A stretch of DNA of 64,000 nucleotides, taken from Phyllobates terribilis. Lineage: Eukaryota. Shown here piece after piece: positions 2,787 to 64,000 of the stretch. The translations under genes were made by a program, and so were the position numbers. Each line of letters starts with the position of its first letter. The stretch's first letter is position 1. Where the stretch lies: assembly GCF_046119375.1 (NCBI RefSeq), contig NW_027362769.1:374852001-374916000 (forward strand), in the 5' to 3' direction. Below the pieces are notes generated by a model, which saw only the letters and a list, made by a program, of their open reading frames with translations, had not been told where the DNA came from and searched no databases.

Positions 2787-5700
2787 TTACTCTGCTTCCT
2801 CCGTGCTAGCAGAGCCCTGTGGGCCTTCCAGGGCTTCACTAAGCAGCTGTATCTGTCTGCTCATCTGGGAGGAGAGACTCTCGATCCTCCGCGCCTTCTG
2901 GCGCAGCTTGTGTAACTGTTTGTTGTAGGTCTCTTTTAGTTCCATGTAGCAATTGTGCTCGTCTCGGTTTGCAGGGGTCAGCAGCGCTCCGCACCCCATG
3001 TGACACGTCTCGCTCCAATACTCGCAGCTTTGGCTGTGGTCAACTATGTCTTTCCTCATCACCTGGGCAGGACATCCAGCATTGGCGCAGGGCACCAGTC
3101 CGAAACCGCATGACTCTGCGTGCTCCTCGCTCCTCAGCAGAGGGAAGAGGGCTGGGCAGCCATTCTGCTCGTTAGGACACTGATCATCAAGACAGATACA
3201 TTATGTTATAGACCTTAAAGTAGATTTATCACTAGGTATAAAATATAGATTTTTTTTTTTTTACCTGCTGTAAATGACGCGCCCCCTGGGCCGTGGGGCA
3301 CCCGGAGCCGGGCCGGTAGATGCTGGGGGTTGTAGTCACTGTGGCGGTGACCCGGTCCCTGACCCAGGGTGGTCAATCCAAGGGGATGTATAGGTTTTTA
3401 TAATGTCTGACTACGCCACCTGTGGAGTGCGGCTAAAGGGGGGGCCACCACTGCGGAACAGTCCTCTGAAGCTGGTGGTTGCGCAGCAATGATGGTATAA
3501 CTCCCCACAGGAAGAGTTAGCTTCAGGGCAGTGTGTGAGGATGATGGTGGTTGTGCTGAGCGTTATAGTGCAGTGAGGGATGGCGCAGCAAGTAACACAG
3601 AGACAAGATAGTGCAGTCCCAGGGGCTTTACTCACAGTTATTGCAATCCAGATTATAGAGCTCAATGTAATTGCCCACGTCATTCTGTGCTTACTCAGTG
3701 AGGGGCTCAGTCCACCCTCAGGTATTTCCAGAGCACTCAGCAGGACCCCTTTCTGTGTGCCTTCCTCAGCCGTCTTCCTGCGCTGGCTCTCACCCTCCTG
3801 CCCTGCGCCTCACAGTCAGTGTCCCAAGCCGGTGGCCTCGGGTCTTGGCAGGCGACCTGCAGTCCCCTGGGCCCTATGTGGCCACCTTTTTGGCGATTGT
3901 TAACTGTGGTAGGGGGCAGCTGCACCCTGAAAGTACAGCCACCTCCAGTTGCTAGTTGGACTTAAAGTATCCGTGCTAGTTAAGGGGCCGGTCCCCTCTG
4001 CGGCTTGATCCTTCCAATGTCTTGTAGATTCGGGCGGCCTCCAGTACTGCCTGTACCCCTAGGATCCCCTCGTTCCTTCCTCCTGGAGCCTTTCCTGCTC
4101 CCCTTCTCTTCTCTTCCCAGACTTGGGCCTCACTGGCCAGGCCCGCCTCTGGAGCAGAGCTCATGCAGAGCCTCTGCTCCTGGCGCTCCTCCTCCTCTGA
4201 CTGAACACTGAACTAAGATGGTTCCCTATTTTATACAGCTTCCTGTCAAGTGCTCCCAGGATCTACTTCCTCCACCCCATCCACTACATGGTTCCCCCTC
4301 TCTAGGTTGTTCCCCCCACTCCAGCCAGAGACCAGGGACTGTGCTCTCCCATAGAAGCAATCTCGCCCTGTCCCTCGGAAATGTGTAGTGAATGCAGTGT
4401 TAGGGTCCTGAGCTGTACTCCTTCCTTACCTGAGAGTGAGGTACCACACCTCTGGATGAGATGCAATACCTCTGTGGTGACTGAACCCTCAGGGGCACCA
4501 CATAAATGCCACCGTTCTCCTGAATATGGCGATGTTTTTCTTTTCTTCCTGCGCCTCTCCGTTCCTGAGATAAAGTCCTTTCTGCCCTGTGTATCTATTA
4601 TTTTAGCCAACTGGGTGTGGTTCTTCAGAACAAACCCACAGAGAAGAGTTGGGATCATACAGGTAAGAAGCCGCCATATCTCAAGAATGGAGAGGCGCAT
4701 GAACAAAAGAAAAACATCGCCGGATTCAGGAGAACAGCGGCATTTACACCAAATTAAAAAAAAAATACATATTCATGGCAAGTGATAGGTCCCGCTTAAA
4801 GTGGTTGCACAAAATTCAAGAACAAAACATGACTGCTTTCCTTCTCTTAAAGACGCACCACACCTGTTTGAAGGTTGTGTGCGGTATTGCAGTCTCTGAA
4901 AGTTCACTGGAACGGAGCCACAATACCAGACGCAATCCATGAACAGGTGGCGTTGTTTAAGGAAGAAAGCAGACATGCTTTGTGTTTCATTTCACCACCA
5001 TTTTGTAGAACTCTGCCATTAGTAACTAGAATTACCCTTGCTTACACAAAATCAGAAATTCCAACTGCTGGCACAGGTGCATGGTTCATTAAAAGGGCTA
5101 TTTCAGACATTTTGGGCCAGATTCATTATTGAATTTACACTTTTGTCCAGATTTTGTTTTTTTATTTTTGCCCATTTCTAATTGTTGCCTTTTTTTAAGA
5201 TCTATTTTATATGTATTTGCCTATTTTTTATTGTGTTTGCCATTGTGGGAAAGTTTTGGGGTTTCCAAATGTTTTTAGTTTTTTTGGCTGATCACAATTT
5301 TTTTTGCGAAGATGTACACCACTCCCCACGAAGTGATATTTTCATGTACGTCTTTTACATACGACATCTTCAGTTATGGAAGGGACACAATCACTCTCAT
5401 TAAATGATGAAGAAATCTATGGCCGCCTTCTATCCTTTACCTTGACTTGCAGACTGTTGATTTTCCTCTTCAGCTTATGCATCTGTACATAAAGTTTACC
5501 CCTCACTTCGGTTCTACAGCACGGGCAGGTCTGCTGTCTGGGAAAAGGAAGTGCAGTCAAACAAGGATTCATGGAGATGACCCCCATTGTACAGTCTGTG
5601 AGAACCATCAACAAGCTGCTGTTGATGGAGCCGATTTTCAAGTTTCCATCACAGGAAGCTCCAACAAGCTGGAGTTAACGGAGCTGGTATTTTCCACCTA

Positions 5701-10185: not shown

Positions 10186-11220
10186 TCAAGTTTCAGCAGA
10201 GACTGAATATTTACAATGTTGTCCCTTATTTTTTAAGACTTCTGCAATTCGCTGGGGCATGCTAGATATCAGTTTCTGGGCCAAATCCCGAGTGCTTGCA
10301 GTCCATTCTTCCCTAATCAGTGCTTGGAGTTTATCATAACTTAAATCTTTTTGTTTGTCCACCTGCTTTTTGAGGATAGACCACAGGTTCTCAATGGGAT
10401 TAAGATCTGGAGAGTTTCCTGGCCATGAACCCAGAACTGCAATGTTTTGCTCATCGAGCCACTTAGTCACCAGTTTTGCCTTATGACATGGTGCCCCATC
10501 ATGCTGGAAAATGCATTGGTCATCACCAAATTGTTCCTGGATGGTTGGGAGAAGTTGCTCTTGGAGGAGGGTTAGATACCATTCTTTATTCATGGCTGGG
10601 GTCTGAGGCAGAATTTTAAGTGAGCCCCCTCCCTTGGATGAAAAGCAACCCCACACATGAATGGTCTCAGGATGATTTAATGTTGGCATGAAACAGGCCT
10701 CAGGGAAGCTCTCACCTTTTCTTCTCTGAAGCATCATTCTTCCAGATGCTCCTAAAAGTCTAAAAGAGGCTTCATCGGAGAAAATCACTTTCCCCCAGTC
10801 CTCTACTGTCCAATCTCTGTACTTCCTGCAGAACGTCAGTCTGTCCTTCATGTTTTGCTTAGTGAGAAGTGGCTTCTTTGCTGCCCTTTTAGTCACTAAA
10901 CCAGCCTCCAAAAGCCTTCTCCTCACTGTGCGAGCAGATGCACTGACTCCTGCCTGCTGCCATTCCAGGGCAAGCTCTGCACTGGTGTTAAACTGCTCCT
11001 CTTGCTGAATCTTCTTTAGGAGACTGTCCTGGCACTTGCTGGTCTTTCTTGGACGCCCTGAAGCCTTCTTCGCAGCAATTGAACCACTCTGTTTAAAGTT
11101 CTTGATGATCCGATAAATGGTTGATTTCGGGGCAATCGTACAAGCGGCAATGTCCTTGCCTGAAAATCCCTTTTGATGCAAAGCAATGATGTCTGCACGT
11201 GTTTCCTTTGAGGTAACCAT
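10186..11220 (-). CDS. open Tc1-family transposase, DD35E (Traveler-type), 344 aa from ATG 11220
   Basis: Paired-like HTH, GRPRK, FSDE, VWGCFS, FQHDGAPCH..SPDLNPIE with 35 residues between the second D and E. Degenerate TIR at about 11480-11501; no matching TIR seen at the other end. Confidence 0.9.
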   Translation of the reverse strand: MVTSKETRADIIALHQKGFSGKDIAACTIAPKSTIYRIIKNFKQSGSIAAKKASGRPRKTSKCQDSLLKKIQQEEQFNTSAELALEWQQAGVSASARTVRRRLLEAGLVTKRAAKKPLLTKQNMKDRLTFCRKYRDWTVEDWGKVIFSDEASFRLLGASGRMMLQRRKGESFPEACFMPTLNHPETIHVWGCFSSKGGGSLKILPQTPAMNKEWYLTLLQEQLLPTIQEQFGDDQCIFQHDGAPCHKAKLVTKWLDEQNIAVLGSWPGNSPDLNPIENLWSILKKQVDKQKDLSYDKLQALIREEWTASTRDLAQKLISSMPQRIAEVLKNKGQHCKYSVSAET

Positions 11221-12034: not shown

Positions 12035-13670
12035 CAGTTATATGAACAAGTTTGGGCACCCCTATTACTCTTAAGCTTAATGTTTTATAAAAATTGGTGT
12101 TTTTGAAACAGCTATTTCAGTTTGATATATGTAATAACTGTTGGACACAGTAATGTTTCTGCCTTGAAATGAGGTTTATTGTACTAACAGAAAATGTGCA
12201 ATCTGCATTCAAACAAAATTTGACAGGTGCATAAGTATGGGCACCCTTATCATTTTCTTGTTTTAAATACTCCTACCTACTTTTTACTGACTTACTAAAG
12301 CACTTTTTTTGGTTTTGTAACCTCATTGAGCTTTGAACTTCATAGCCAGGTGTATGCAATCATGAGAAAAGCTACTTAAAAAGTGGCCACTTGCAAGTTG
12401 TTCTCCTGTTTGAATCTCCTCTGAAGAGTGGCATCATGGGCTCCTCAAAACAACTGTCAAATGATCTGAAAACAAAAGATTATTCAACATAGTTCAGGGG
12501 AAGGATACAAAAAGCTGTCTCAGAGATTTAACCTGTCAGTTTCCACTGTGAGGAACATAGTAAGGAAATGGAAGAACACAGGGACAGTTCTTGTTAAGGC
12601 CAGAAGTGGCAGGCCAAGAAAAACATCAGAAAGGCAGAGAAGAAGAATGGTGAGATCAGTCAAGGACAATCCTCAGACCACCTCCAGAGAGCTGCAGCAT
12701 CAACTTGCTGCAGATGGTGTCACTGTGCATCGGTCAACTATACAACGCACTTTTCACAAGGAGAAGCTGTATGGGAGAGTGATGCAAAAGAAGCAGTTTC
12801 TGCAAGCACGCCACAAACAGTCGGCTGAGGTATGCAAAAGCACATTTGGAGAAGCCAATTTCTTTTTGGAAGAAGGTCCTGTGGACTGATGAAACCAAGA
12901 TTGAGTTGTTTGGTCATACAAAAAGGCATTATGCATGGCGGCAAAAAAACACAGCATTCCAAGAAAAACACTTGCTACCCACAGTAAAATTTGGTGGAGG
13001 TTCCATCATGCTTTGGGGCTGTGTGGCCAATGCCGGCACCGGGAATCTTGTTAAAGTTGAGGGACGCATGGATTCCACTCAGTATCAGCAGATTCTTGAC
13101 AATAATGTTCAAGAATCAGTGACAAAGTTGAAGTTACGCAGGGGATGGATCTTTCAGCAAGACAATGATCCAAAACACCGCTCCAAATCTACTCAGGCAT
13201 TCATGCAGAGGAACAATTACAATGTTCTGGAATGGCCATCCCAGTCCCCAGACCTGAATATCATTGAACATCTGTGGGATCATTTGAAGAAGGCTGTCCA
13301 TGCTCGGCGACCATCAAACTTAACTGAACTGGAATTGTTTTGTAAAGAGGAATGGTCAAAAATACCTTCATCCAGGATCCAGGAACTCATTAAAAGCTAC
13401 AGGAAGCGACTAGAGGCAAAAGGAGGATCTACTAAATATTAATGTCACTTTTCTGGTGAGGTGCCCAAACTTATGCACCTGTCAAATTTTGTTTGAATGC
13501 AGATTGCACATTTTCTGTTAGTACAATAAACCTCATTTCAAGGCAGAAACATTACTGTGTCCAACAGTTATTACATATATCAAACTGAAATACCTGTTGC
13601 AAAAACACCAATTTTTATAAAACCATAAGTTTAATATTAATAGGGGTGCCCAAACTTTTTCATATAACTG
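12035..13670 (+). mobile_element. Tc1 DD34E element, IR/DR type, frameshifted transposase
   Basis: 211-bp TIRs (12035-12245, 13460-13670), TA TSD, 1636 bp. Transposase from ATG 12435 is split over frames; QDNDPKH..SPDLNIIE = D34E. Confidence 0.93.
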
Positions 13671-17506: not shown

Positions 17507-24486
<6,980 letters not shown>

Positions 24487-32520: not shown

Positions 32521-33796
32521 GGTGGGGAGAGCAAATGGGGGGTGGGGGAGACTTAATGATGATAAATAGAGGGTGGGGTTGAGGAGAACAAGACATGACA
32601 TACTGAATTGGGGCAGAGGGTCCATGTAAATATAATGATTCAGGGGAGCAGGAGGTACAGAGTAGGGGGCGTTGATGCAGGAGTGTGACTGGTAATAAAT
32701 TGGGGGAAAGAGTACTAATTCATTTATATATTTATTAGGTGGGTAAAGTGGCTATTTACCGTTAGTGTGGGCACCGTGGTGGATTACAATTTATATTTGG
32801 AATGGTGGGTTGCATAATGACTGATTATATATTAATGGTGGGTGTGTGGCGCCCCTGCGGGTTCAGTCGCCGCAGAGGTACTGCATCTCACCCAGAGGTG
32901 TGGTATCCCACTCTCAGGTAAGGATAGAGTGCTGCTTGGGACCCTAACACCTGCATCCAACACACTCCACTTCAGTAGGGCAGGGCGAGATTGCTCCTAC
33001 GGGAGATCACAGTCCCTGGTCCCTGGCTGGAGTGGAGGGGAACCTAGTGAGAAGGAACCATGTAGTGGGTGTGGGTGGAGGATGTAGATCAGGGGAGCAC
33101 TGGTGAGGGAGTGATATAAAAGGGGGAACCATCTTGAAAGTTTAGTTCAGTTCAGTCAGTGAGAGAGAGAGAGTGGTGTTGGAGGAGGAAAGTGAGGGGT
33201 GCAGAGGCTCTGCGGGAGCTCTGATCCAGAGCGGGCCTGAGGAGAGGCCCAGGACTGAAGGAAGAGGAGAGGGAGCAGGAGAAAGGCTCCAGGAACAGAA
33301 GGGATCCCAGGGGTACGGGAAGTGCTGGAGGCCACCCATACGCCCGAATCTGCCAGGCGGTGGAGGGATCGAGCCGCAGAGGGGACCGGCCCCTAAACTA
33401 GTGGAGAACTACAAGGCTCAGCTAGGAACCGGAGGCTGCTGTACTTACAAGGTGCAGTGGCCACATCTGCAACTATATCGCCGAAAAGGTGGCCACATAG
33501 GGTCCAGGGGACTGCAGGTCGCCGACAAGACCCGAGGCTACCGGATTGGGACACTGGTTGCGAGGCGCAGGGCAGGAGGGCGAGAGCCAGCGCAGGAAGA
33601 CGACTGGTGAAGGCACATAGAAAGGAGTACTGTCAGGCACTCTTGAATTACCTGAGGGATTGCTGAACCCCTGCCTGGTTAACACAGCACGACGTGGGAG
33701 GTTGTAGTCCGGAACCTGTAACCTGAGGAACTTAACAACTGTGAGTAAACTCGGAAGACTGCACCCCACTGTCTCTGTGATTATTGTCTGCGCCAT

Positions 33797-36700
33797 TGTA
33801 GCGCCCCGAGGGCTCGGCCGCTACAGGGGTATTGCACCTCAGACCAGAGGTGTGATATTCCACTCTCGGGTAAGGATGGAGTATGGACCAGGGCTCAGTT
33901 AGCTGCATGCAGCACACACACCCCATTTCTCAGGGACAGCTCAACGGTGCTCCCACTAGACATAAGTGCAGGCACGACCGACCATGTCCCTGCTGGAGTG
34001 GGGAGGGAGGGGTGGAACACCCAGTGCTGTAGGGGCAGATAGGGGGCGGTTCCTGAGTGTAGGAAGAAGCCCATTGGTTGCTGGTCACCTGGGCTCATGG
34101 CTAGAGGGAGGTATAAAAGGTGGGCACCATCTTAGTTCTGGGTCAGTTCAGCCAGAGGAGAAGACAGGGAGTAGAGGCTCTGTAGGAGCTCTACTCCAGG
34201 AGGGCCTAGTGAAGAGGCCGAGGAGGAGGTGAAGGGGAGCTGAGATTCTGGCTCATCTCAGCTCCAAGAGAACGGAACAAGAAAGGAACAGAAAGGAACA
34301 GAGAAAGAGAAGGAGAGACAGAGAAACAGAAGGGCTCAGGAACAAGAAGGTGGAAGGGACCCTAAGAACCCACGAGAATCCAGGGTGAAGGGTCAGGCAG
34401 ATTAAGGGTACCGGATCCCAAGTTGGTGGAGGAGAAACAACCCTCAGCCAAAGACCGGTCGTCGTGATCATCTATTGGTGCGACACCTCATCAAACCTGC
34501 TAGGAAGGCACCATATAGGACAGCGGAGGACGGGGCCCACGTTTAACCGCACAAGTCCGCGGCAGCTGGACAAAAGTGGGCCACTGGTGAGGCAGGCCAG
34601 AGAAAGGATTAAAGGGGGTCCTGTGCCATGCTCCTGAACTGCCTGGGAGTTGACCGAGCCCCACACCTGGTGGACGCAGCACGGCTCGGGCGGTCACTAT
34701 CTGTGCACAAGTGACCTGGACTACCTGAACTGTGAGTAAAAGACATTGGGCTGCAGTACGTTGTCTGTGTGCTCTTTCGCGCCTCCAGCACTTTCAGCAC
34801 CGGGACCCGCACTACCATCCCTCCCAACATCCACTACACTGCCCTGGGGCCGCACTCTTCCCGTGGGGAGTCACATCACCTCAGCTGCACCCATCATCAG
34901 CCCCAGCGGACTGCCTTGCAGCGGCGGTTCCTAATAACCGCAATCCACGGGTGGCGTAGTCGGACATTATCTGAAGTACGTAGCAGACTACCAATGGCCT
35001 GACCACCCTGAGCCGCGGGACCGGGCCGCCACTACTACTACCCCCAACGTCTCCCTATCGCCCGGATCCGCGTGCCCCACGGCCCAGGGGGCGAGTCAGC
35101 TTTGGCGTAGTCGGCAGGATCGTGACCAACCTGCCACAAATGGGTATTGCGTGCCTGAAGAGAATTACACATGTACCTTAAAAAGAAGTTTCCCGCCGTC
35201 CGGAGTCGTTTCCCGCCATCCGGAGCCGATTCCCGCCATCAGACGCCATCTTGGACCGTTTCCCGCCATCTTCATCCGTCTTTCCCGCCCTGGCAGAGCG
35301 GACGCCATTATGGGCGCACCAAAAGACAGCAGGAAGCCACCTCCCATCGTGGGCCAGGTCCCAGAATGGCGCCAAAGAAGAAGCCCGCCCCCACCAGCCA
35401 TGAATGCAGCAGTGGAGATGTCCATCAACATGGGGGGGCTGCCCCTGAAAGTGATTGTCAGCAGAATGCCCCAGGACCACCCCCTCTGGGGGCGGAAAGA
35501 GAAGAAAACTGTGGGGCAGGGCGCGGTCTGGATCAGTCTGGCCAGGCCGCACCCGGAGATGGAGGGGGAAATCAGTGCCGGTACCCTGGTAAAGGGCCTG
35601 CTGCAAGCAACACCACCATGCAGCCTCACCGAGCTGTTAGCCCATCTCCCCAAGGAGGATCCCGAATACACACGGGCGGCGCTGGAAGAACTGGACCGGA
35701 GGATGGTCCGGGCGCAGCAAGAAGTGATCGCCGGATGGAAGGAGGAAGTGGCCCGGCGGGCTGTGATCCTGCAGCCGAAGGCGCCAGCAACAAGCAGCGC
35801 ACCAGCCAGTGAGGGCCGAGCGGAGGCCGAGGACGACGCCGTGGAGAAGGCCGCGACAGCAGAGGCAGGTAACGGAGACGCCCCTGCACCGAATCCTAGG
35901 GCCGCCGACCTGCCCCTGCACCCCGTCGCGGAGCCCCACGCACCGGGACCCGCTGTTGACACCGTGCCCTCACCGCCATCAACCAGCCCCCAGGCCGTCG
36001 ACGCTGCCAGCGAGCCCCGCCCCACGCCGTGCCCTCTGACCCCGGGCGTGCTCAGCCAACCGCCACCGCAGGCCCGGTCGCAAGGCCTAGCGCCCCCGTA
36101 CGCCGCCTGTCGACGGTCGTACTGCCGCCAACAGCTGGAGGTGTTCGAGAGGGAGCACCGGGAGCGGCGCATGAAACAGGAGAAGCTGCAGGCCCAAAGT
36201 GCGGAGCAGAAGATGAAAGCCCGACGAGATCCCCGAGCTGCCCGCGGTCCCGGAGTCACCGGGACTGTCGTGAAATTTCACATGGAACATGGCTGCGGTT
36301 TCATCCGAGACCCCGAGACCATCAGTGACGTGTTTGTGACAAGGAGAGATGTGGAGAGTCACCTACCGAAAGGCCATCGTGGGCGGGATTTATTCCCAGG
36401 CGACGTGGTGTCTTACACCCGACACCAAGGCGTGAAGGGGTGGTACGCCCTACACGTCCGCCGAGTAGTAGAGGAGGAGGAACAGCACTACTCGGACGCT
36501 GAGTACCAGGAGGGCCCAGACGGGCCTGAAGATCATGAGGAAGAAGGAGCATCAGGAGGACACCGTTACCAGTGAACGGTAAAGTGGCATTGTAAATAGT
36601 TACCCGTAAGGGTGCAAAAGAACTGTGTGGGACTGTTTCAAATTGAGTGTGGTCCCCGTTGGGACTGATATAGGACTGTATGAAAATTATCCCCTAAGTA

Positions 36701-38475
36701 ACCTGGCTGAGGACTGAGAACAGCCACCCCTCTTCCCCTAACAGGCTGAGGACTGTGAGCAGCCATTCCCCTATCCCCACCGGCCGAGGACTGGGAACGG
36801 CCAATCCCTTGTATATAGTTGCGCTTCTTAAAGCGCCCCCTACTGGTTTTATAAAAAGAACCGCAACGTCTACCTCAAAGTTAAAATGGACTGTTGCACC
36901 TTTAAAAAGAAAGAACACCTGGTCGCAAGTTGCACCGCGGCCATGAATCAAGAACCCAAGAATGTGCTTTAGTTAAAAATGTTTTAGATTTTATATGCTG
37001 CTAAATAGTAATGAAAAAGTTTTCTATAATGTCTAGTGAAAAGAAAAGTGTGTCCCATAAAGGGAGTTGAACCGTATTGTCTGTTTCTAATGTGAAAAGT
37101 TTTAAAAAGTTTTGCATGTCCTTTAAATAACTGTTTTTGCTCTTTTCCAGCCCGAGGACGTGCTGTGCTTTACCAGGGGGGAATGTAGCGCCCCGAGGGC
37201 TCGGCCGCTACAGGGGTATTGCACCTCAGACCAGAGGTGTGATATTCCACTCTCGGGTAAGGATGGAGTATGGACCAGGGCTCAGTTAGCTGCATGCAGC
37301 ACACACACCCCATTTCTCAGGGACAGCTCAACGGTGCTCCCACTAGACATAAGTGCAGGCACGACCGACCATGTCCCTGCTGGAGTGGGGAGGGAGGGGT
37401 GGAACACCCAGTGCTGTAGGGGCAGATAGGGGGCGGTTCCTGAGTGTAGGAAGGAGCCCATTGGTTGCTGGTCACCTGGGCTCATGGCTAGAGGGAGGTA
37501 TAAAAGGTGGGCACCATCTTAGTTCTGGGTCAGTTCAGCCAGAGGAGAAGACAGGGAGTAGAGGCTCTGTAGGAGCTCTACTCCAGGAGGGCCTAGTGAA
37601 GAGGCCGAGGAGGAGGTGAAGGGGAGCTGAGATTCTGGCTCATCTCAGCTCCAAGAGAACGGAACAAGAAAGGAACAGAGAAAGAGAAGGAGAGACAGAG
37701 AAACAGAAGGGCTCAGGAACAAGAAGGTGGAAGGGACCCTAAGAACCCACGAGAATCCAGGGTGAAGGGTCAGGCAGATTAAGGGTACCGGATCCCAAGT
37801 TGGTGGAGGAGAAACAACCCTCAGCCAAAGACCGGTCGTCGTGATCATCTATTGGTGCGACACCTCATCAAACCTGCTAGGAAGGCACCATATAGGACAG
37901 CGGAGGACGGGGCCCACGTTTAACCGCACAAGTCCGCGGCAGCTGGACAAAAGTGGGCCACTGGTGAGGCAGGCCAGAGAGAGGATTAAAGGGGGTCCTG
38001 TGCCATGCTCCTGAACTGCCTGGGAGTTGACCGAGCCCCACACCTGGTGGACGCAGCACGGCTCGGGCGGTCACTATCTGTGCACAAGTGACCTGGACTA
38101 CCTGAACTGTGAGTAAAAGACATTGGACTGCAGTACGTTGTCTGTGTGCTCTTTCGCGCCTCCAGCACTTTCAGCACCGGGACCCACACTACCATCCCTC
38201 CCAACATCCACTACACTGCCCTGGGGCCGCACTCTTCCCATGGGGAGTCACATCACCTCAGCTGCACCCATCATCAGCCCCAGCGGACTGCCTTACAGCG
38301 GCGGTTCCTAATAACCGCAATCCACGGGTGGCGTAGTCGGACATTATCTGAAGTACGTAGCAGACTACCAATGGCCTGACCACCCTGAGCCGCGGGACAG
38401 GGCCGCCACTACTACTACCCCCAACGTCTCCCTATCACCCGGATCCGCGTGCCCCACGGCCCAGGGGGCGAGTCA
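33797..38475 (+). mobile_element. non-autonomous LTR retroelement (Gypsy-like by inference) with a single cold-shock-domain ORF
   Basis: LTRs 33797-35098 and 37184-38475 (TG..CA; 8 substitutions and one 10-bp indel seen by eye), TSD CCAT, PBS TGGCGTAGTCGGCAGGAT 35103-35120 (complement of tRNA-Ser 3' end), PPT AGGGGGGAA 37175-37183, LTR TATAAAA 34112. Confidence 0.95.
35310..36575 (+). CDS. 421-aa LTR-element protein with C-terminal Y-box-like cold-shock domain
   Basis: Strong-Kozak ATG at 35310 within the 35151-36575 ORF. Pro/Ala-rich linker, charged helical segment, CSD about 36255-36464 (GTVVKF..HGCGFI..DVFVT..GDVVSY..GVKGWYALHV), acidic tail. No CCHC, RT, RNase H or integrase motifs. Confidence 0.8.
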   Translation: MGAPKDSRKPPPIVGQVPEWRQRRSPPPPAMNAAVEMSINMGGLPLKVIVSRMPQDHPLWGRKEKKTVGQGAVWISLARPHPEMEGEISAGTLVKGLLQATPPCSLTELLAHLPKEDPEYTRAALEELDRRMVRAQQEVIAGWKEEVARRAVILQPKAPATSSAPASEGRAEAEDDAVEKAATAEAGNGDAPAPNPRAADLPLHPVAEPHAPGPAVDTVPSPPSTSPQAVDAASEPRPTPCPLTPGVLSQPPPQARSQGLAPPYAACRRSYCRQQLEVFEREHRERRMKQEKLQAQSAEQKMKARRDPRAARGPGVTGTVVKFHMEHGCGFIRDPETISDVFVTRRDVESHLPKGHRGRDLFPGDVVSYTRHQGVKGWYALHVRRVVEEEEQHYSDAEYQEGPDGPEDHEEEGASGGHRYQ

Positions 38476-38949
38476 CCATCACCCCTGCACTACAACGCCC
38501 AGCATCACCTATAACATCTACACTGCCCTGGAGCTAAGCTCTACCTGTGGAGAGCCACACCAGCTTTGCTGCATTTACATCAGCTCCAGAGGACCTGCTC
38601 CGCAGCGGCGGCTCCCTTTAGCCGCATACCACAGGTGGCGTCACGAACTTTGTACATAAATCCCCTGTAAATATCTCCTTTTGTTGACCGCCCTCGGTCA
38701 CGGACCGGGTCACTGCCACTGTGACATCTCCCCTAGTAATGACCGGCCCGGCACCGAGTACCCCACGGCCCAGGGGGCGCGTCAGGTGCACGTCTGTATT
38801 CAGCTGCGTAGTGTAGAAGTTGGGGAATGTGCTCTAGATAACTGTGTGTTATGTTAGGCAGAGACGAGTCCTGGCTGGAAGAAGTGACGGTGGTCTGTGC
38901 TGGATTTAGGAGAAAAGCAAAGATGAAGGACTTCACTTAGACATATCAG

Positions 38950-45100: not shown

Positions 45101-48100
45101 ACTGCCAATCGGTAGAGTTGAAGTTGCAACCTCAAATTGATCCATCTACTTGGTCAAAACCACGAAGTGAATCCAAGTCTCATCACTGATTTGATTTTAA
45201 CATCTGAACTCTTTAAAGTCATTGATCTTCATTTCTGCAGATGAAACTCCTTCCCTTACGGCAAAAGAAGGCCCACATCATGGAGATCCAGCTTAACGGT
45301 GGGACGGTCTCTGAGAAGGTAGACTGGGCTCATGAGAAACTGGAAAAGCAAATCCCAGTGAGCACTGTCTTTGGCCAGGACGAGATGATTGATGTTATTG
45401 GTGTCACCAAAGGAAAGGGAATGAAAGGTGAAAGAATGGGTTGTCCCCCATCTACCCTCCAAAAATATAGTCTAGTTTACCAACCACTGAACCAAAATTT
45501 CCGGACAATTTCTGTTGCCAATATTTATTAACTATTAATCTTCTATTAGGTGTAACCTCGCGTTGGCACACCAAGAAATTACCCCGTAAGACACACAAGG
45601 GTTTACGTAAGGTAGCCTGCATTGGAGCCTGGCACCCTGCTCGTGTTGCTTACACCATTGCCCGAGCTGGGCAAAAAGGCTACCACCATCGTACCGAGAT
45701 CAACAAGAAGGTACAAAAAATAGTTTTGAAGACAAAAATTGATGATTAAAATCAGCGGTTTGTCTTTTGAGGATCAAACCTAAGTTCCTAATTTACAGGC
45801 TACCGATTAGCCATGTTTGTGTTTTTCCCAAAGATTTATCGTATTGGCAAAGGTATCCATATTCTCGATGGAAAGGTTGTAAAGAACAATGCGTCAACAC
45901 AGTACGATGTCACAGACAAGTCCATTACACCACCGGTAAGTAAATCAGTAAGAAGGAAGCCCCAATGTGATGCAAAAAGAAAACCCTCCAAGTCCTTGAG
46001 TGAAGGAGACAGTTAATATGGCCACAATTTAAGCTCCACCAAAAGTGTAACTTGAAGCTCCTACCAATGCAAAATTTGTACCTGGTTCCCCTCAAAGAAA
46101 CATGTAAAATGTAGAGTGAACTTTATGGTCTTTGAGACACTAGTGCAAACCCTACTCTCCTGGTTGCCACCTACCATTTATCAGACTCCTAAACATCAAA
46201 AGTGTCTAGCAATGCACTAACGGGGCATGCCGTCATTGAAATCACCATCATTCAGCAGCATCCCGTGATGCCATCACGCCTGCCTCTCCTGCTGAGTGAT
46301 GCCCTTAAATTATCACCATTTTTTTGTTCACCAGGGAGGCTTCCCACATTACGGTCCAGTAAACAACGACTATATCATGGTTAAGGGCTGTGTTGTAGGA
46401 AGCAAGAAGCGTGTCCTCACCCTCAGGAAGGTAAGTGAATGATCGAGAGTGGTGCAAAAAAGGAACAGTGGTTTGCCCCCCCACATCTATCAATTAGTGG
46501 TGGACATAGATAATCATTGACGATCAGATCAAATACGAAGATAATTGATATAGACGATCACTACCAAACAGACCCTATAAGAAGATCGTTAATATAACTG
46601 TTAATTAACAATCAGACCAAATAGGAATATCATTGATGTAGATGATCATTATCGATCAGGCTATACACGAAGATTGCTGATGTAGACAATCATTAGCGTC
46701 AGACTAAATTTGAAGATCGTCGATATAGACGATCATTGGCGATCATACTATATTCGAAGATTATTTATGTAGATGATCATTGGCGATCAGACCATATACA
46801 AAGATTGTTAATATAATCATTGGTAATCAGACCATACACAAAGATTGCTGATGTAGATGATCGTTAGCAATCAGACCAAATTTGAAGATCATTGATATAG
46901 ATGATCTTTAGTGATTAGACCATATACGGAGATTGTTGATGTGTAGATGATCATTAGCAATTAGACCATATATGAAGATTGTAGACATAGATGATCGTTA
47001 GCGATTAGACCATATGTGAAGATTGTTGATGTAGACAATCATTAGCGATCAGACCAAATATGAAGATCATTGATATAGATGGTCGTTAGCAATCACACCA
47101 GATTCGAAGATCATTCATTGATACAGTTGGTCATTTGAGATCAGACCATATACGATGATTGTTGATATAGATGATTGTTAGCAATCAGACCAAATTTGAA
47201 GATCGTTGATACAGATGATCATTGGCGATTAGACCTTATACGAAGATTGTTGATATAGATGATCGTTAGCGATCAGACCATATTGAAAGATTGTCGATAT
47301 AGACAATCATTGACGATCATACCATATGCGAAGATTGTTGATGTAGACAATCATTAGCAATCAGACCAAACTTGCAGATCGTCGATAAAGATGACCACTA
47401 GCGATCAGACCATATTTTTAGATCGCTGATTGTTGAGATGATCTTCAGCAATCAGGCCATATTCGAAGAATTCTGATAATAATTTTAATAATATTATCCT
47501 TTTGACTTATAGAAATGTGTTTCATTGATTGGAACATGTAAGTTTCAAATTCAATATATTTCAGTTTATGCTTCTTTAATAAGCCGGAGTACAGATAATG
47601 AAAACCGAGGCCTGTCTTTATGTCTATATCCAGCTTCAGGCTGGTTTTGAAGAAAATAAGCAGCTACTGATTGCTATAGAAAACTGAACCACTTTTGCTT
47701 TACACCAGACCCTTACAATATCCTCAATGCCAGGTTGGGCTGGGTAAAGGCCTTGGTAAACATCAGGGTTGGCAACATGACCTATGAAGTCAGCCATGTT
47801 GTGACTTCATTGGGCATTTGTCGGGAAGAAGGTCCACTTGCCCAATACAGAGCCAAAAAAAGAATCACTACTGAGTATGATGTCACTATTTCACCACATA
47901 TTTTCCTCTCATAGTCTCTGTTGGTCCACACAAGTCGTCGTGCTTTGGAGTCCATCGATCTAAAATTCATTGACACCACATCGAAGTTTGGCCATGGATG
48001 CTTTCAGACATACCAGGAGAAGAGAGCTTTCATGGTAGGTTCATAGAGGTTTTCCCACCAAAAATGTTTTTCGACTAGGCAGGTCTGATCGATGGGAGTC

Positions 48101-56740: not shown

Positions 56741-58119
56741 AGCCATTTTTATAGGGGTCGTCACCTATTTATTCATAACTCTAACAATGACATATTGTTA
56801 CTTTGTCTATATTGGACCAATATTAATCAAAATTGACATCCAGGAGTCTAGGAAAAACGGGTGACAACTTCCATAACAGCTTTAATGGCTGCTACTTCGC
56901 ATTCTTAGAAGAAGAAACGGTTGTAACAAGAGGAGAATAATTTGGGCCTCTTGTATTATATTCACTGGGGAGTTTTTGATATCAGGTGGAAATGCCCTTT
57001 AAAGGTGTTTTTTGGTGTTTTAAGAAAATAGGCCACAAGGAGGAAGAAGTAGCCCATACTTACCGTTTTATTCTCCCTTGCCTATTTGGTGGTCTCTGTA
57101 GGCCTTGGCTTACTTCCTTCAGTGTTGACATGCCATGTGACCGCTGCAGCCAATCACTGGCAGACGGAACGCAGAGACCATCAGGGACCACCAGAGCAGC
57201 AGTGCTAAATGATAAGCATAGGATACTTCTTTATCTTATACCAAGCTAATGTGGAAGGTTTCCAAAAAATAAAGGAAAACCCCTTTAAGTCGGAAAGTTA
57301 TCCTAGTGTTGAAAACAAATCCAACTCTGCTACGTCTGAGCCACATTCCGGACTTTGCTCCATAGACACGACCTGTTTTTGCTGTGTCTTCTGCACATGT
57401 TGCTATATTGGGCAGCCTCATGTGACAGGTGCGCCCCCTCCCAGCGGAGGTCATGGTGTAAAGCTTATTCCAGCACTTCTCTTTAATTATCTGTTTCCAG
57501 CTGAATCAGGCGGTTCCTCAGTTTTGCGCCTTGTTCTCAGCCTGACAGAGCGACGCTTCCAGCCTCCTCACAGTCTAACTACTCCTCCCAACATACACGG
57601 GTGACAATGCCGCCCCCGTCCTGAATTCATTGCTGGCGTGTCTACTTTAACTCTTAAAGGGTTCCATACCCCTAATGAATGTTTTACATAACAATTTTTA
57701 AAACGTGTGGGGGAAATGGAAGTTTTGGGCCCTTTTTTATACAGCAATTCTAGCAAAAATATAATGTACAAGGGAGCTGCGGAAACCTCTGGGGTGACAG
57801 GAGGCGGATTTGTAGCAGAAATTTTCATACCTGGATTTGAGCAAACTCCATGAATGGGTCAGTCGCAGAACTTTTTACAACAAGTCTGACACATGTGACT
57901 CCAGCCTGAGTACTTTGTGGGTGATTTTGCTGTCTGAGGTCCAATCGCAGGTCACTGTCATGTTGCCCTTTTTGCTGTAATTTTCATGTCGTTGCACACA
58001 AATGCTGAAGTTTAGCTGCAGTTTTTGTGAAAACTCCAACAAGTGTATTAGATGTAGCCCACAATGGACTGTACTAGGTAACTGCATTAGAAATAATTTA
58101 ACCCAACTGAACATCAGTG

Positions 58120-61100
58120 GGATTGTGGAGCTGTGCACCAGTGTATTATGTATCTGCAGGATTGTGGAGCTGTGCACCAGTTTATTATGTATGTGAAAGA
58201 TTGTGGAGCTGTGCACCAGTGTATTATGTATCAGCAGGATTGTGGAGCTGTGCACCAGTGTATTATGTATCAGCAGGATTGTGGAGCTGTGCACCAGTGT
58301 ATTATGTATCAGCAGGATTGTGGAGCTGTGCACCAGTGTATTATGTATCAGCAGGATTGTGGAGCTGTGCACCAGTGTATTATGTATCAGCAGGATTGTG
58401 GAGCTGTGCACCAGTGTATTGTGTATCAGCAGGATTGTGGAGCTCTGCACCAGTGTATTATGTATCAGCAGGATTGTGGAGCTGTGCACCAGTGTATTGT
58501 GTATCAGCAGGAATGTGGAGCTGTGCACCAGTGTATTATGTATCTGCAGGATTGTGGAGCTGTGCACCAGTGTATTATGTATCTGCAGGATTGTGGAGCT
58601 GTACACCAGTGTATTATGTATCAGCAGGATTGTGGAGCTGTGCACCAGTGTATTGTGTATCAGCAGGATTGTGGAGCTGTGCACCAGTGTATTATGTATC
58701 AGCAGGATTGTGGAGCTGCGCACCAGTGTATTATGTATCTGCAGGATTGTGGAGCAGTGCACCAGTGTATTATGTATCTGCAGGATTGCGGAGCAGTGCA
58801 CCAGTGTATTATGTATGTGCAGGATTGTAGAGCTGTGCACCAGTGTATTATGTACTGTATGTGAAAGATTGTGGAGCTGTGCACCAGTGAATTATGTATC
58901 AGCAGGATTGTGGAGCTGTGCACCACTGTATTATGTATGTGAAGGATTGTGGAGCAGTGCACCAGTGTATTATGTATGTGCAGGATTGTAGAGTTGTGCA
59001 CCAGTGTATTATGTATGTGCAGGATTGTGGAGCTGTGCACCAGTGTATTATGTATGTGAAAGATTGTGGAGCTGTGCACCAGTGTATTATGTATCAGCAG
59101 GATTGTGGAGCTGTGCACCAGAGAATTATGTATGTGAAGGGTTGAGGAGCTGTGCACCAGTGTATTATGTATGTGAAAGATTGTGGAGCTGTGCACCAGT
59201 GTATTATGTATCAGCAGGATTGTGGAGCTGTGCACCAGAGAATTATGTATGTGAAGGGTTGTGGAGCTGTGTGCACCAGTGTATTATGTATCAGCAGGAC
59301 TGTGGAGCTGTGCACCAGTGAATTATGTATCAGCAGGATAGTGGAGCTGTGCACCAGTGTATTGTGTATCAGCAGGATTGTGGAGCTGTGTGCACCAGTG
59401 TATTATGTATTTGCAGGATTGTGGAGCTGTGCACCAGTGTATTGTGTATCAGCAGGATTGTGGAGCTGTGTGCACCAGAGTATTATGTATGTGCAGGATT
59501 GTAGAGCTGTGCACCAGTGTATTATGTATGTGCAGGATTGTGGAGCTGTGCACCAGAGTATTATGTATGTGAAGGATTGTGGAGCTGTGCACCAGTGCAT
59601 TATGTATGTGCAGAATTGTGGAGCTGTACACCAGTGTATTATGTATCAGCAGGATTGTGGAGCTGTGCACCAGTGTATTCTGTATCAGCAGGATTGTGTA
59701 GCTGTGCACCAGAGTATTATGTATGTGAAGGGTTGTGGAGCTGTGCACCAGTGTATTATGTATCAGCAGGACTGTGGAGCTGTGCACCAGTGAATTATGT
59801 ATCAGCAGGATTGTGGAGCTGTGCACCAGAGTATTATGTATCTGCAGGATTGTGGAGCTGTGCACCAGTGTATTATGTATGTGCAGGATTGTAGAGCTGT
59901 GCACCAGTGTATTATGTATGTGCAGGATTGTGGAGCTGTACACCAGTGTATTATGTATGTGAAAGATTGTGGAGCTGTGCACCAGTGTATTGTGTATCAG
60001 CAGGATTGTGGAGCTGTGCACCAGTGTATTATGTATCTGCAGGATTGTGGAGCTGTGCACCAGTGTATTATGTATGTGCAGGATTGTGGAGCTGTGCACC
60101 AGTGTATTATGTATGTGCAGGATTGTGGAGCTGTACACCAGTGTATTATGTATCAGCAGGATTGTGGAGCTGTGCACCAGTGTATTCTGTATCTGCAGGA
60201 TTGTGTAGCTGTGCACCAGAGTATTATGTATGTGAAGGATTGTGGAGCTGTGCACCAGTGTATTATGTATCAGCAGGATTGTGGAGCTGTGCACCAGTGT
60301 ATTGAGTATCAGCAGGATTGTGTAGCTGTGCACCAGAGTATTATGTATGTGAAGGGTTGTGGAGCTGTGCACCAGTGTATTATGTATCAGCAGGATTGTG
60401 GAGCTGTGCACCAGTGTATTGTGTATCAGCAGGATTGTGTAGCTGTGCACCAGAGTATTATGTATGTGAAGGATTGTGGAGCTGTGCACCAGTGTATTAT
60501 GTATCAGCAGGACTGTGGAGCTGTGCACCAGTGTATTATGTATCAGCAGAATTGTGGAGCTGTGCACCAGTGAATTATGTATCAGCAGGATTGTGGAGCT
60601 GTGCACCAGTGTATTATGTATCAGCAGGATTGTGGAGCTGTGTGCACCAGTGTATTATGTATCAGCAGGATTGTGGAGCTGTGCACCAGTGTATTATGTA
60701 TCAGCAGAATTGTGGACCTGTGCACCAGTGAATTATGTATCAGCAGGATTGTGGAGCTGTGCACCAGTGTATTATGTATCAGCAGGACTGTGGAGCTGTG
60801 CACCAGTGTATTATGTATCAGCAGGATTGTGGATCTGTGTGCACCAGTGTATTATGTATCAGCAGGATTGTGGAGCTGTGCACCAGTGTATTGTGTATCA
60901 GCAGGATTGTGTAGCTGTTCACCAGAGTATTATGTATGTGAAGGATTGTGTAGCTGTGCACCAGTGTATTATGTATCAGCAGGATTGTGGAGCTGTGCAC
61001 CAGTGTATTATGTATCAGTAGAATTGTGGAGCTGTGCACCAGTGTATTATGTATCAGCAGAATTGTGGAGCTGTGCACCAGTGTACTATGTATGTGAAGG

Positions 61101-64000
61101 ATTGTCGAGCTGTGCACCAGTGAATTATGTATCAGCAGGATTGTGGAGATGTGCACCAGTGAATTATGTATCAGCAGGATTGTGGAGCTGTGCACCAGTG
61201 AATTATGTATCAGCAGGATTGTGGTGCTGTACACCAGTGTATTATGTATCAGCAGAATTGTGGAGCTGTGCACCAGTGTATTATGTATCAGCAGGATTGT
61301 GGAGCTGTGCACCAGTGTATTGTGTATCAGCAGGATTGTGGAGCTGTGCACCAGTGTATTATGTATCTGCAGGATTGTGGAGCTGTGCACCAGTGTATTA
61401 TGTATCTGCAGGATTGTGGAGCTGTACACCAGTGTATTATGTATCAGCAGGATTGTGGAGCTGTGCACCAGTGTATTGTGTATCAGCAGGATTGTGGAGC
61501 TGTGCACCAGTGTATTATGTATCAGCAGGATTGTGGAGCTGTGCACCAGTGTATTATGTATCTGCAGGATTGTGGAGCAGTGCACAAGTGTATTATGTAT
61601 CTGCAGGATTGCGGAGCAGTGCACCAGTGTATTATGTATGTGCAGGATTGTAGAGCTGTGCACCAGTGTATTATGTACTGTATGTGAAAGATTGTGGAGC
61701 TGTGCACCAGTGAATTATGTATCAGCAGGATTGTGGAGCTGTGCACCAGTGTATTATGTATGTGAAGGATTGTGGAGCAGTGCACTAGTGTATTATGTAT
61801 GTGCAGGATTGTAGAGTTGTGCACCAGTGTATTATGTATGTGCAGGATTGTGGAGCTGTGCACCAGTGTATTATGTATGTGAAAGATTGTGGAGCTGTGC
61901 ACCAGTGTATTATGTATCAGCAGGATTGTGGAACTGTGCACCAGAGAATTATGTATGTGAAGGGTTGAGGAGCTGTGCACCAGTGTATTATGTATGTGAA
62001 AGATTGTGGAGCTGTGCACCAGTGTATTATGTATCAGCAGGATTGTGGAGCTGTGCACCAGAGAATTATGTATGTGAAGGGTTGTGGAGCTGTGTGCACC
62101 AGTGTATTATGTATCAGCAGGACTGTGGAGCTGTGCACCAGTGAATTATGTATCAGCAGGATAGTGGAGCTGTGCACCAGTGTATTGTGTATCAGCAGGA
62201 TTGTGGAGCTGTGTGCACCAGTGTATTATGTATTTGCAGGATTGTGGAGCTGTGCACCAGAGTATTATGTATGTGCAGGATTGTAGAGCTGTGCACCAGT
62301 GTATTATGTATGTGCAGGATTGTGGAGCTGTACACCAGTGAATTATGTATCAGCAGGATTGTGGAGCTGTGCACCAGTGAATTATGTATCAGCAGGATTG
62401 TGGAGCTGTGCACCATTGTATTATGTATGTGCAGGATTGTGGAGCTGTGCACCAGTGTATTATGTATGTGCAGGATTGTGGAGCTGTGCACCAGTGTATT
62501 ATGTATGTGCAGGATTGTGGAGCTGTACACCAGTGTATTATGTATCTGCAGGATTGTGTAGCTGTGCACCAGAGTATTATGTATGTGAAGGATTGTGGAG
62601 CTGTGCACCAGTGTATTATGTATGTGCAGAATTGTGGAGCTGTACACCAGTGTATTATGTATCAGCAGGATTGTGGAGCTGTGCACCAGTGTATTCTGTA
62701 TCAGCAGGATTGTGGAGCTGTGCACCAGAGTATTATGTATGTGAAGGGTTGTGGAGCTGTGCACCAGTGTATTATGTATCAGCAGGACTGTGGAGCTGTG
62801 CACCAGTGAATAATGTATCAGCAGGATTGTGGAGCTGTGCACCAGAGTATTATGTATGTGCAGGATTGTAGAGCTGTGCACCAGTGTATTATGTATGTGC
62901 AGGATTGTGGAGCTGTACACCAGTGTATTATGTATGTGAAAGATTGTGGAGCTGTGCACCAGTGTATTGTGTATCAGCAGGATTGTGGAGCTGTGCACCA
63001 GTGTATTATGTATCTGCAGGATTGTGGAGCTGTGCACCAGTGTATTATGTATGTGCAGGATTGTGGACCTGTGCACCAGTGTATTATGTATGTGCAGGAT
63101 TGTGGAGCTGTACACCAGTGTATTATGTATCAGCAGGATTGTGGAGCTGTGCATCAGTGTATTCTGTATCTGCAGGATTGTGTAGCTGTGCACCAGAGTA
63201 TTATGTATGTGAAGGATTGTGGAGCTGTGCACCAGTGTATTATGTATCAGCAGGATTGTGGAGCTGTGCACCAGTGTATTGTGTATCAGCAGGATTGTGT
63301 AGCTGTGCACCAGAGTATTATGTATGTGAAGGGTTGTGGAGCTGTGCACCAGTGTATTATGTATCAGCAGGATTGTGGAGCTGTGCACCAGTGTATTGTG
63401 TATCAGCAGGATTGTGTAGCTGTGCACCAGAGTATTATGTATGTGAAGGATTGTGGAGCTGTGCACCAGTGTATTATGTATCAGTAGGACTGTGGAGCTG
63501 TGCACCAGTGTATTATGTATCAGCAGAATTGTGGAGCTGTGCACCAGTGTATTATGTATCAGCAGAATTGTGGAGCTGTGCACCAGTGAATTATGTATCA
63601 GCAGGATTGTGGAGCTGTGCACCAGTGTATTATGTATCAGCAGGATTGTGGAGCTGTGTGCACCAGTGTATTATGTATCAGCAGGATTGTGGAACTGTGC
63701 ACCAGTGTATTATGTATCAGCAGAATTGTGGACCTGTGCACCAGTGAATTATGTATCAGCAGGATTGTGGAGCTGTGCACCAGTGTATTATGTATCAGCA
63801 GGACTGTGGAGCTGTGCACCAGTGTATTATGTATCAGCAGGATTGTGGATCTGTGTGCACCAGTGTATTATGTATCAGCAGGATTGTGGAGCTGTGCACC
63901 AGTGTATTGTGTATCAGCAGGATTGTGCAGCTGTGCACCAGAGTATTATGTATGTGAAGGATTGTTTAGCTGTGCACCAGTGTATTATGTATCAGCAGGA
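58120..64000. repeat. 39-bp satellite array running off the window end, with about 2.8-3.0-kb higher-order repeat
   Basis: GGATTGTGGAGCTGTGCACCAGTGTATTATGTATCAGCA; rare variants recur at offsets of 2823 and 3016 bp. Confidence 0.98.

Follow-up and report, generated by a model that had tools for sequence, protein, structure and literature searches.

How does a retroelement without gag or pol move, and why is its only gene a cold-shock domain (CSD) protein? These questions are raised by an LTR retroelement at positions 33797-38475 of the analysed window, a 64,000-nt stretch of Phyllobates terribilis DNA. Its paired LTRs of 1302 and 1292 bp (33797-35098 and 37184-38475; features are on the + strand unless stated otherwise) have the ends TGT...TCA and were aligned with 1284 matches, 8 mismatches (7 of them transitions) and 10 gap columns. 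The element is flanked by a CCAT target-site duplication (33793-33796 and 38476-38479) and is nested in another, related solo LTR (32845-33796 and 38480-38784) that has its own GGTG duplication. The U3-R part of the LTR (33797-34734, with the boundary inferred from a poly(A)-like signal) contains TATAAAA at 34112-34118 and is followed by an AGTAAA signal and U5 (34735-35098). The primer binding site (PBS, 35103-35120), whose first base is 4 nt past the end of the LTR, is complementary at 18 of 18 positions to the 3′ end of tRNA-Ser(TGA) including CCA. It pairs without mismatch with the final 15 nt of tRNA-Ser(TGA) genes in genome G000 and the added CCA, the tRNA identity being taken from full genes found with ARAGORN at three of six fetched places (ARAGORN found no tRNA at the other three, nor at the first two places tried, one of which was a 3′ fragment). 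Inside U5, 12 nt of the PBS are repeated (34952-34963, and again at 38329-38340). A leader with CCCGCC repeats spans 35099-35290, and the polypurine tract (PPT) AGGGGGGAA is at 37175-37183. The paired LTRs, PBS, PPT and 4-bp duplications show that the element moves as an LTR retroelement, and all of these signals, listed in the preliminary description of the locus, were re-found.

The single ORF of 421 aa (35310-36575, + strand) is preceded by four ATGs in the 1.2-kb leader; two other overlapping frames encode 213 aa (+) and 335 aa (-). A low-confidence N-terminus is followed by a helical region (residues 91-155, 35580-35774, no family match), a Pro-rich linker, a long basic helix (residues 263-312, 36096-36245), the CSD (residues 317-385, 36258-36464) and an acidic tail of 33 aa. 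The CSD was matched by Pfam PF00313 (E 7.4e-7, 29.4 bits against a cut-off of 27) and, modelled alone in AlphaFold, was predicted as a five-strand OB barrel (pLDDT 84.9), which bears out the domain assignment made earlier. A Pfam scan of the 421-aa protein at E ≤ 1 returned the CSD alone, without any capsid family, and CCHC, protease and YxDD motifs were all missing from a six-frame scan of the interior. The gene set of an autonomous Ty3/Gypsy element (gag, protease, RT, RNase H, integrase) is missing. The earlier reading of one intact ORF without gag knuckle, protease, RT or integrase, in a young and non-autonomous element, is upheld.

The CSD elements are a large young family. A genome search returned 1,195 exact matches to the PPT/3′-LTR junction. 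The same interior was found at all 30 of the first junctions sampled; the frame through coil, CSD and tail was unbroken in 22 of these copies and the CSD was missing from 2. Contigs of guessed or unknown type from four runs gave short pieces across all 30 bins and do not bear on expression either way; contigs that skip 35935-36744 represent CSD-less derivatives. Of 27 complete copies that were parsed, 24 have a 4-bp target duplication, and LTR divergence in complete copies was 0.38-1.87%. Members of the same CSD clade are found in lineage 2, a further LTR lineage whose LTRs are unrelated (no matching helper LTR was found for it among the LTRs examined), in mini elements with just a 100-135-aa CSD ORF, and among proteins named from three genera of dendrobatoid frogs. 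Some copies have become part of gene models in the host annotation (P0002, P0019, P0022, P0027).

The best sequence matches of the CSD among solved structures were YBX1/2 (54 bits) and CspA (46 bits), with weaker matches to UNR (≤25 bits), LIN28 (≤24) and CARHSP1 (23). The predicted fold was compared with CspA (Z 12.1, rmsd 1.7, 69 aligned) and YB-1 (Z 11.2, rmsd 2.6, 75 aligned), which tie. The aromatic binding patch of YB-1 consists of W, Y/F, F, F and H. Only part of this patch is present in the element CSD: the Phe residues of RNP1 and RNP2 are retained (26 of 26 copies), the position of the first Trp is Lys and that of the RNP2 His is Thr (26 of 27 copies in each case), and the position of the Tyr is Trp in 24 of 27 relatives and Cys in the window copy. 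As judged from sequence, two RNA-stacking residues are lost, and given the Lys, Thr and Cys replacements, nucleic-acid binding may be different from, or weaker than, that of known CSDs. In the copies L111 and L204 the CSD is divergent and retains the RNP2 His.

The element protein has the CSD fold and both RNP Phe in common with YBX1/YBX2 and CspA, and resembles YBX further in a YBX-length loop, an Ala/Pro-rich stretch preceding the CSD and a charged tail. Its CSD is about 34% identical, whereas the human and zebrafish YB-1 rows are identical over the aligned stretch. It also differs in a new W/P-Y pair in the last strand, in the long basic helix that precedes the CSD, and in having the short acidic tail in place of a long basic/acidic repeat tail. 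A cleaner YBX retrocopy was sought in genome G000 and the query itself was the only match, so the CSD tree is without an intact YBX; a decayed YBX-like copy, the sole YBX present, was placed outside the element clade. The label 'Y-box-like' in the preliminary description is best taken as resemblance and not as a demonstrated origin. It agrees with YBX1/2 as the best sequence match to a solved structure, but not with the structural tie or with the replaced Trp and His.

The CSD is under purifying selection, about as tight as that on the RT and integrase of the likely helper described below. Its dN/dS was 0.07 (CI 0.04-0.14) against 0.52 for the linker. The CSD value was 0.11 both in 27 DNA-picked copies (CI 0.07-0.17) and in lineage 2, and 0.12 in three mini elements; the helper values were 0.11 for gag, 0.08 for RT and 0.08 for IN. 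All of these were computed from overlapping pairs and are not independent. The helical region had a dN/dS of 0.18, and the long basic helix 0.19 in DNA-picked and 0.65 (CI 0.25-1.67) in protein-picked copies. The ORF could be a passenger, kept for the RNA stability that translation provides, or a gene kept for the frog's gain. The copies within host gene models would fit this, as would captured ORFs of rotifer LTR elements, for which part of PMC5408684 reports no departure from neutrality. Constraint is centred on the CSD, however (third-position p-distance 0.146 against 0.027 and 0.018). It is seen between dispersed young copies and subfamilies, and therefore arose while the elements were replicating and not at one fixed site in the host genome. 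The domain-specific dN/dS largely refutes the passenger or host-benefit explanation, which we regard as quite improbable.

The autonomous partner with the same LTR end and PBS, for which a search had been suggested, was found. The candidate helper is a Ty3/Gypsy element with a PNMA-like CCHC gag and a full pol. Of 8,730 LTR-end/PBS junctions, the first 30 were followed: 24 led to gag-pol and 4 to the CSD ORF. PNMA, RVT_1, RNase H, rve and H2C2 were above cut-off in the two helper copies scanned, and the CCHC knuckle was present in Gag at 12 of 12 loci. The AGTAAA signal and U5 (73-89% identity) and the leader (71-90%) are common to the CSD element and the helper at 12 of 12 loci, U3-R at 0 of 12, and the PPT is identical. 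Complete helper copies have a 4-bp duplication (6/6) with the flank bias of the CSD element, purine before and pyrimidine after. Their LTR divergence is 0.9-2.5%, and they are coeval with the CSD family. On sequence grounds, the CSD element is non-autonomous, with cis signals common to a coeval gag-pol family, and its leader is a candidate packaging signal. The CSD was also considered as an accessory gene of the helper; this was rejected, as the CSD ORF was found at 0 of 12 helper loci, a small sample.

The helper also bears on the suggestion, made in the preliminary description, that the CSD replaces the nucleocapsid. On that reading the protein would stand in for Gag nucleocapsid, or be a cryptic Gag, and only Pol would be borrowed. 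CSDs are nucleic-acid chaperones, the ORF occupies the usual position of gag, and the helical region is constrained. However, the helper Gag already has a CCHC knuckle, the element protein showed no similarity to it (hhalign probability 0.1%), and the mini elements retain only the CSD ORF under equal constraint. Pfam gave no capsid family, and in the low-confidence model there are a long helix and a pair of short ones, but no capsid-like bundle. A wide fold search matched the CSD alone; the absence of a capsid match is weak, because the N-terminal half was modelled only as part of the longer, low-confidence structure. The best ESM Atlas scores, 0.84 (residues 255-400) and 0.77 (residues 25-160), are leads at most. 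Since no capsid was observed in the element protein, nucleocapsid replacement is judged very improbable.

U3-R is the sole LTR part that differs from the helper, and it could be a target of the protein. In that case the CSD protein would regulate transcription or translation of its own element through ssDNA or RNA in U3-R or the 1.2-kb leader. The four upstream ATGs would suit such a role, and YB-1 is active in both transcription and translation according to part of PMC6040738. Yet lineage 2 has an unrelated LTR and an equally constrained CSD, so no conserved target is evident, and we consider self-regulation improbable.

A further explanation is offered by the PBS, which is of the tRNA-Ser type in all three CSD element types looked at. 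By analogy, the CSD may serve in counter-defence and protect the element at its PBS from silencing RNAs, such as 3′ tRNA fragments, by binding or displacing them, with the U5 copy perhaps a decoy. According to a review (PMC10393972), LTR elements are blocked at the PBS by 3′-CCA tRNA fragments, and the YBX1 CSD binds tRNA fragments. At 106 of 115 TCA-ended junctions (some loci were fetched twice), the internal PBS copy is found about 150 nt further upstream. It is also present in the helper, which is without a CSD, yet missing in 11 of 11 lineage-2 junctions, which do carry one. An action of this kind would be in trans and harder to maintain under strong selection. Counter-defence is considered unlikely.

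We lean towards the CSD element being a parasite of the PNMA-gag Ty3/Gypsy retrotransposon; helper use is inferred from the common signals. Very probably, the element RNA would be transcribed from its own promoter, packaged by helper Gag, primed by tRNA-Ser, and copied and then integrated by helper Pol. For the protein, we find it somewhat probable that it binds mostly its own ssRNA and raises the chance of that RNA making a new insertion. It would stabilise or unfold the RNA that encodes it and deliver this RNA to helper particles, in competition with the helper's own RNA, acting in addition to the helper nucleocapsid and not in its place. An analogy is host YB-1, which supports HIV RNA levels and particle production according to part of PMC6040738. 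Action in cis is suggested because pure trans action would favour ORF-less free riders, yet most sampled copies keep the frame; since CSD-less derivatives exist, there is no strict requirement for the protein in cis. More tentatively, the CSD might have been acquired from a Y-box gene in a single event, then remodelled and spread among unrelated frog LTR lineages. It could then be a cis-acting, Gag-independent RNA adaptor that gives the element an advantage over helper RNA in the competition for particles, or that shields the tRNA-Ser priming site, and its carriers an undescribed class of satellite.

Non-autonomous LTR elements are commonly regarded as hitch-hikers that encode nothing. The protein of the CSD elements belongs to neither Gag nor Pol, and it is held under RT-strength selection in at least two unrelated LTR lineages. 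This would imply an unrecognised step, in which the parasite RNA benefits from its own RNA-binding protein, and makes competition between helper and parasite RNA for packaging and priming testable. In frogs with large genomes, genome size and recently active Ty3 elements go together (PMC12822217, in part), and pol-based counts would overlook CSD elements in such work. The elements also explain spurious 'CSD-containing' frog gene models.

A literature search listed no report of a CSD within an LTR element, and 'cold shock' or 'cold' had 0 matches in the available text of PMC4585706, PMC11152451, PMC6278860, PMC5408684 and PMC12822217; cold-shock cargo in an LTR element thus appears to have no earlier description, although repeat libraries (Repbase, Dfam) could contain the family. 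The Xenopus laevis elements 1A11, Xretpos(L) and lambda-olt 2-1 are likewise frog LTR elements with one ORF and without pol, present in tens to hundreds of copies and transcribed in early embryos (PMC4585706, in part). The 71-kDa protein of 1A11 is set apart by its description as Gag-like in the same text, and no Xenopus-named protein was among the matches to the element protein. Captured genes are common to unrelated lineages of LTR retrotransposons, as here; parts of PMC5408684 and PMC6338049 list rotifer DEDDy, GDSL and dUTPase, an insect SF1 helicase and a chromodomain. There the cargo is on autonomous elements, and that of rotifers is without significant departure from neutrality (PMC5408684, in part), whereas the CSD is the only gene of its element, is missing in 12 of 12 helper copies and has a dN/dS of about 0.1. 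The PNMA-gag Ty3/Gypsy helper is alike in U5, PBS, leader, PPT, 4-bp duplication and flank bias, and differs in its gag-pol, its unrelated U3-R and the missing CSD. LARD, TRIM, ETn riding on MusD, and MaLR retain LTR, PBS, PPT and a helper-like leader, borrow Gag and Pol, and are non-coding or carry gag remnants. The CSD element has the same LTR, PBS, PPT and helper-like leader, but the gene in its interior is neither gag nor pol and is selected as strongly as RT.

The CSD element is real: it is a non-autonomous LTR retroelement whose cargo, a cold-shock domain (CSD), is under selection, and its support now goes beyond the preliminary description, whose structural features were all present in the window. 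The 5′ LTR (33797-35098, + strand) and 3′ LTR (37184-38475, +) have the ends TGT...TCA, with 8 substitutions and 10 gap columns between them, and a CCAT target duplication lies on each side. Over its whole length the PBS (35103-35120, +) complements the tRNA-Ser(TGA) 3′ end, CCA included, without a mismatch; full genes for this tRNA were present at three of six places fetched from the same genome. The PPT lies at 37175-37183 (+) and the 421-aa ORF at 35310-36575 (+). The sole Pfam match in the ORF was CSD PF00313 (residues 317-385; 29.4 bits, cut-off 27), in agreement with the domain first proposed. Six-frame motif checks of the interior gave no knuckle, protease or RT, also as described. Two further frames overlap the ORF, one of 213 aa (35171-35812, +) and one antisense of 335 aa (35165-36172, -); at locus L127 the upstream ATG shares the reading frame of the CSD ORF.

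AlphaFold modelling of the element protein (13 sequences, mean pLDDT 52) placed helices at residues 90-154, a long helix at 264-306 and a barrel at 315-385, with residues 1-110 and 155-262 at low confidence. Folded alone, the predicted CSD reached pLDDT 84.9 and resembled CspA (Z 12.1) and YB-1 (Z 11.2) almost equally. By sequence profile YBX1/2 scored best (54 bits), followed by CspA (46), with LIN28, CARHSP1 and UNR at 25 bits or below. The earlier label 'Y-box-like' describes a resemblance in profile and in loop length, which is YBX-like. In CSDs a Trp, the RNP1 Tyr, a Phe pair and a His stack on RNA. Because both Phe are retained (26/26 copies) while K replaces Trp (26/27), T replaces His (26/27) and W replaces the RNP1 Tyr (24/27; C in the window copy), the binding face, as read from sequence, is partly kept and partly remodelled.

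A protein search of the source genome (10.6 Gb; 99 scored out of 73,058 candidates) gave at least 101 matches at 82-100% identity. The 30-nt PPT/LTR junction occurred exactly 1,195 times (control, 0). The first 30 hits, selected on position and not on protein, all carried the element interior; the coil-CSD-tail frame was unbroken in 22, had stops in 6 and was mostly or wholly missing in 2. 27 of 40 fetched copies parsed as complete, 24 of them with an exact 4-bp duplication. Their LTR pairs diverged by 0.38-1.87% (median 0.79%), which bears out the young age originally assigned. Four loci (L044, L054, L058, L066) are tandem three-LTR copies (LTR-interior-LTR-interior-LTR), each with a single target duplication, and several family members were inserted in relatives or satellites.

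dN/dS was calculated from pairwise counts. In a sample chosen on protein likeness (52 sequences: 51 of 57 copies, those without stops, plus the window copy; 526 most distant pairs), the CSD stood at 0.07 (codon bootstrap 0.04-0.14), helix 91-155 at 0.18, the linker at 0.52 and residues 31-90 at 0.65. The DNA-picked sample (27 copies, each with 60 or more CSD codons) gave 0.11 (0.07-0.17) for the CSD, 0.19 for the helix preceding it and 0.38 for the tail. The intervals are optimistic because pairs overlap; the domain contrast was seen in both samples. Helper controls were 0.11 (gag), 0.08 (RT) and 0.08 (integrase). The CSD is under strong constraint and is not evolving neutrally; beside these values, a passenger or host-benefit gene is a very improbable account of the ORF.

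The autonomous partner anticipated earlier is probably a Ty3/Gypsy gag-pol family with the same LTR end and PBS (the helper). The LTR-end-plus-PBS pattern occurred 8,730 times (control, 0); among the first 30 hits, 24 led into gag and a pol start, 4 into the CSD ORF, 1 into pol only and 1 into neither. A CCHC gag lay in a single frame at 12/12 gag-bearing loci fetched, two of which had a pol frame above 1,300 aa; PNMA, RVT_1, RNase H, rve and H2C2 matches were present in both helper copies scanned. At all 12 loci the helper resembled the last 364 LTR bases (73-89%) and the leader (71-90%) of the CSD element, and the PPT is identical. The first 938 LTR bases and the CSD ORF were matched in 0/12. 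All six complete helper copies had 4-bp duplications (LTR divergence 0.9-2.5%). A purine just before the duplication was found in 23/24 element and 5/6 helper copies, a pyrimidine just after it in 22/24 and 6/6. Since the U5 end, leader, PPT and duplication are common to both families, and the first 938 LTR bases and the ORF are not, the CSD element is a chimaera: the promoter region and gene are its own, and the priming, integration and probable packaging signals are those of the helper.

The CSD element has retroelement structure, lacks gag and pol and shares these cis signals, and helper Gag and Pol very probably package, copy and integrate its RNA. Replacement of nucleocapsid or Gag by the CSD protein is the least probable role considered; the protein has no likeness to helper gag. 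On balance, the putative CSD protein would bind its own RNA and better that RNA's survival or entry into helper particles. Such cis action is suggested because selection in replication favours a gene mainly if its product aids the RNA that encoded it. Against this overall reading stand the loss of two aromatic residues, the occurrence of derivatives without the CSD, and lineage 2 (below), for which no helper was found. Counter-defence against 3′ tRNA fragments (PMC10393972) is an unlikely function, and self-regulation by the CSD protein a distinctly less likely one.

The first 12-13 nt of the PBS recur within U5, ~150 nt upstream of the LTR end (window 34952-34963, 38329-38340, 38636-38648 and 3418 (-)). 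This second copy was present in 106/115 TCA-ended junctions, helper included, and in 0/11 TACA-ended ones. Genome-integrated tRNA-Ser 3′ pieces with CCA appended (L217, L219, L220, L223) suggest reverse transcription of mature primer tRNA. The CSD element inserted in a solo LTR related to it (32845-38784), which has its own GGTG duplication and an internal PBS copy of the other tRNA-Ser-type version; another solo LTR, 76% like this one, lies at 3275-4502 (-) with a TTTA duplication. Elsewhere in the window are Tc1-type transposase ORFs (10186-11220 (-), 344 aa, open; 13008-13442 (+)), a near-perfect 946-bp palindrome lacking a spacer (19146-20091), exon-like frames at ~21500-21660 and 45241-45430, which we take to resemble ribosomal proteins S2 and L3, and a tandem satellite with a 39-bp unit (57976-64000).

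A first look for Pfam CSD in the source genome gave 33,380 candidates. The loci read were relatives of the ORF of up to ~800 codons, apart from intronless CSDE1/UNR-like copies (L101-L106, G000:C1:734.44 Mb) and a decayed YBX-like copy (L121), names presumed from the translations. In three mini elements the ORF is cut down to 100-135 aa and starts right at the CSD (L144:2928, L145:2847, L146:3064, oriented; CSD dN/dS 0.12); two have a PBS of what is presumably a different tRNA-Ser type. A second lineage has LTRs of ~1,030 bp ending TACA, with no likeness to the CSD element or helper except the PBS. It showed 4-bp duplications in 3/3, 544 junction hits and a CSD dN/dS of 0.11 (0.06-0.16); at 12 places picked from the first 24 listed, the CSD was present in 10 and sense gag or pol in none. 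A very basic region precedes its CSD (47 K/R of 141; L197-L203, L205-L214). CSD-carrying elements comprise at least two LTR lineages, one of them with a likely helper. All 23 frog element-type CSDs formed one clade (support 0.99; FastTree, 52 domains). A local cluster (L111, L143, L204; G000:C4:791.48-791.52 Mb) has a divergent CSD retaining the RNP2 His (VYVH/VFVH).

Database relatives were named from Phyllobates, Ranitomeya and Anomaloglossus, and were not counted as independent of the source genome; the remaining hits were weak, to multi-CSD proteins that were protist, bacterial or unnamed. Absence from other animals is weak evidence because element ORFs are seldom annotated. Four public gene models (P0002, P0019, P0022, P0027) join the element CSD to other proteins, from their accessions presumably a Harbinger-type nuclease, R3H/coiled-coil, astacin/CUB and MIF4G. 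These fusions probably arose when intronic insertions were annotated; exonisation is a possible alternative.

Full-text literature searches, which did not extend to the repeat libraries Repbase and Dfam, to supplements or to the original 1A11/Xretpos papers, listed no CSD-bearing LTR element, and passages of poison-frog and anuran repeat papers (PMC11152451, PMC6278860, PMC12822217) made no mention of one; that the family is already catalogued is rather doubtful. Single-ORF, pol-less LTR elements are known from frogs (PMC4585706), and autonomous elements that have captured additional ORFs are known as well (PMC5408684, PMC6338049). Host YB-1 increases HIV RNA and particle output (PMC6040738), a case that bears on the CSD element by analogy only.
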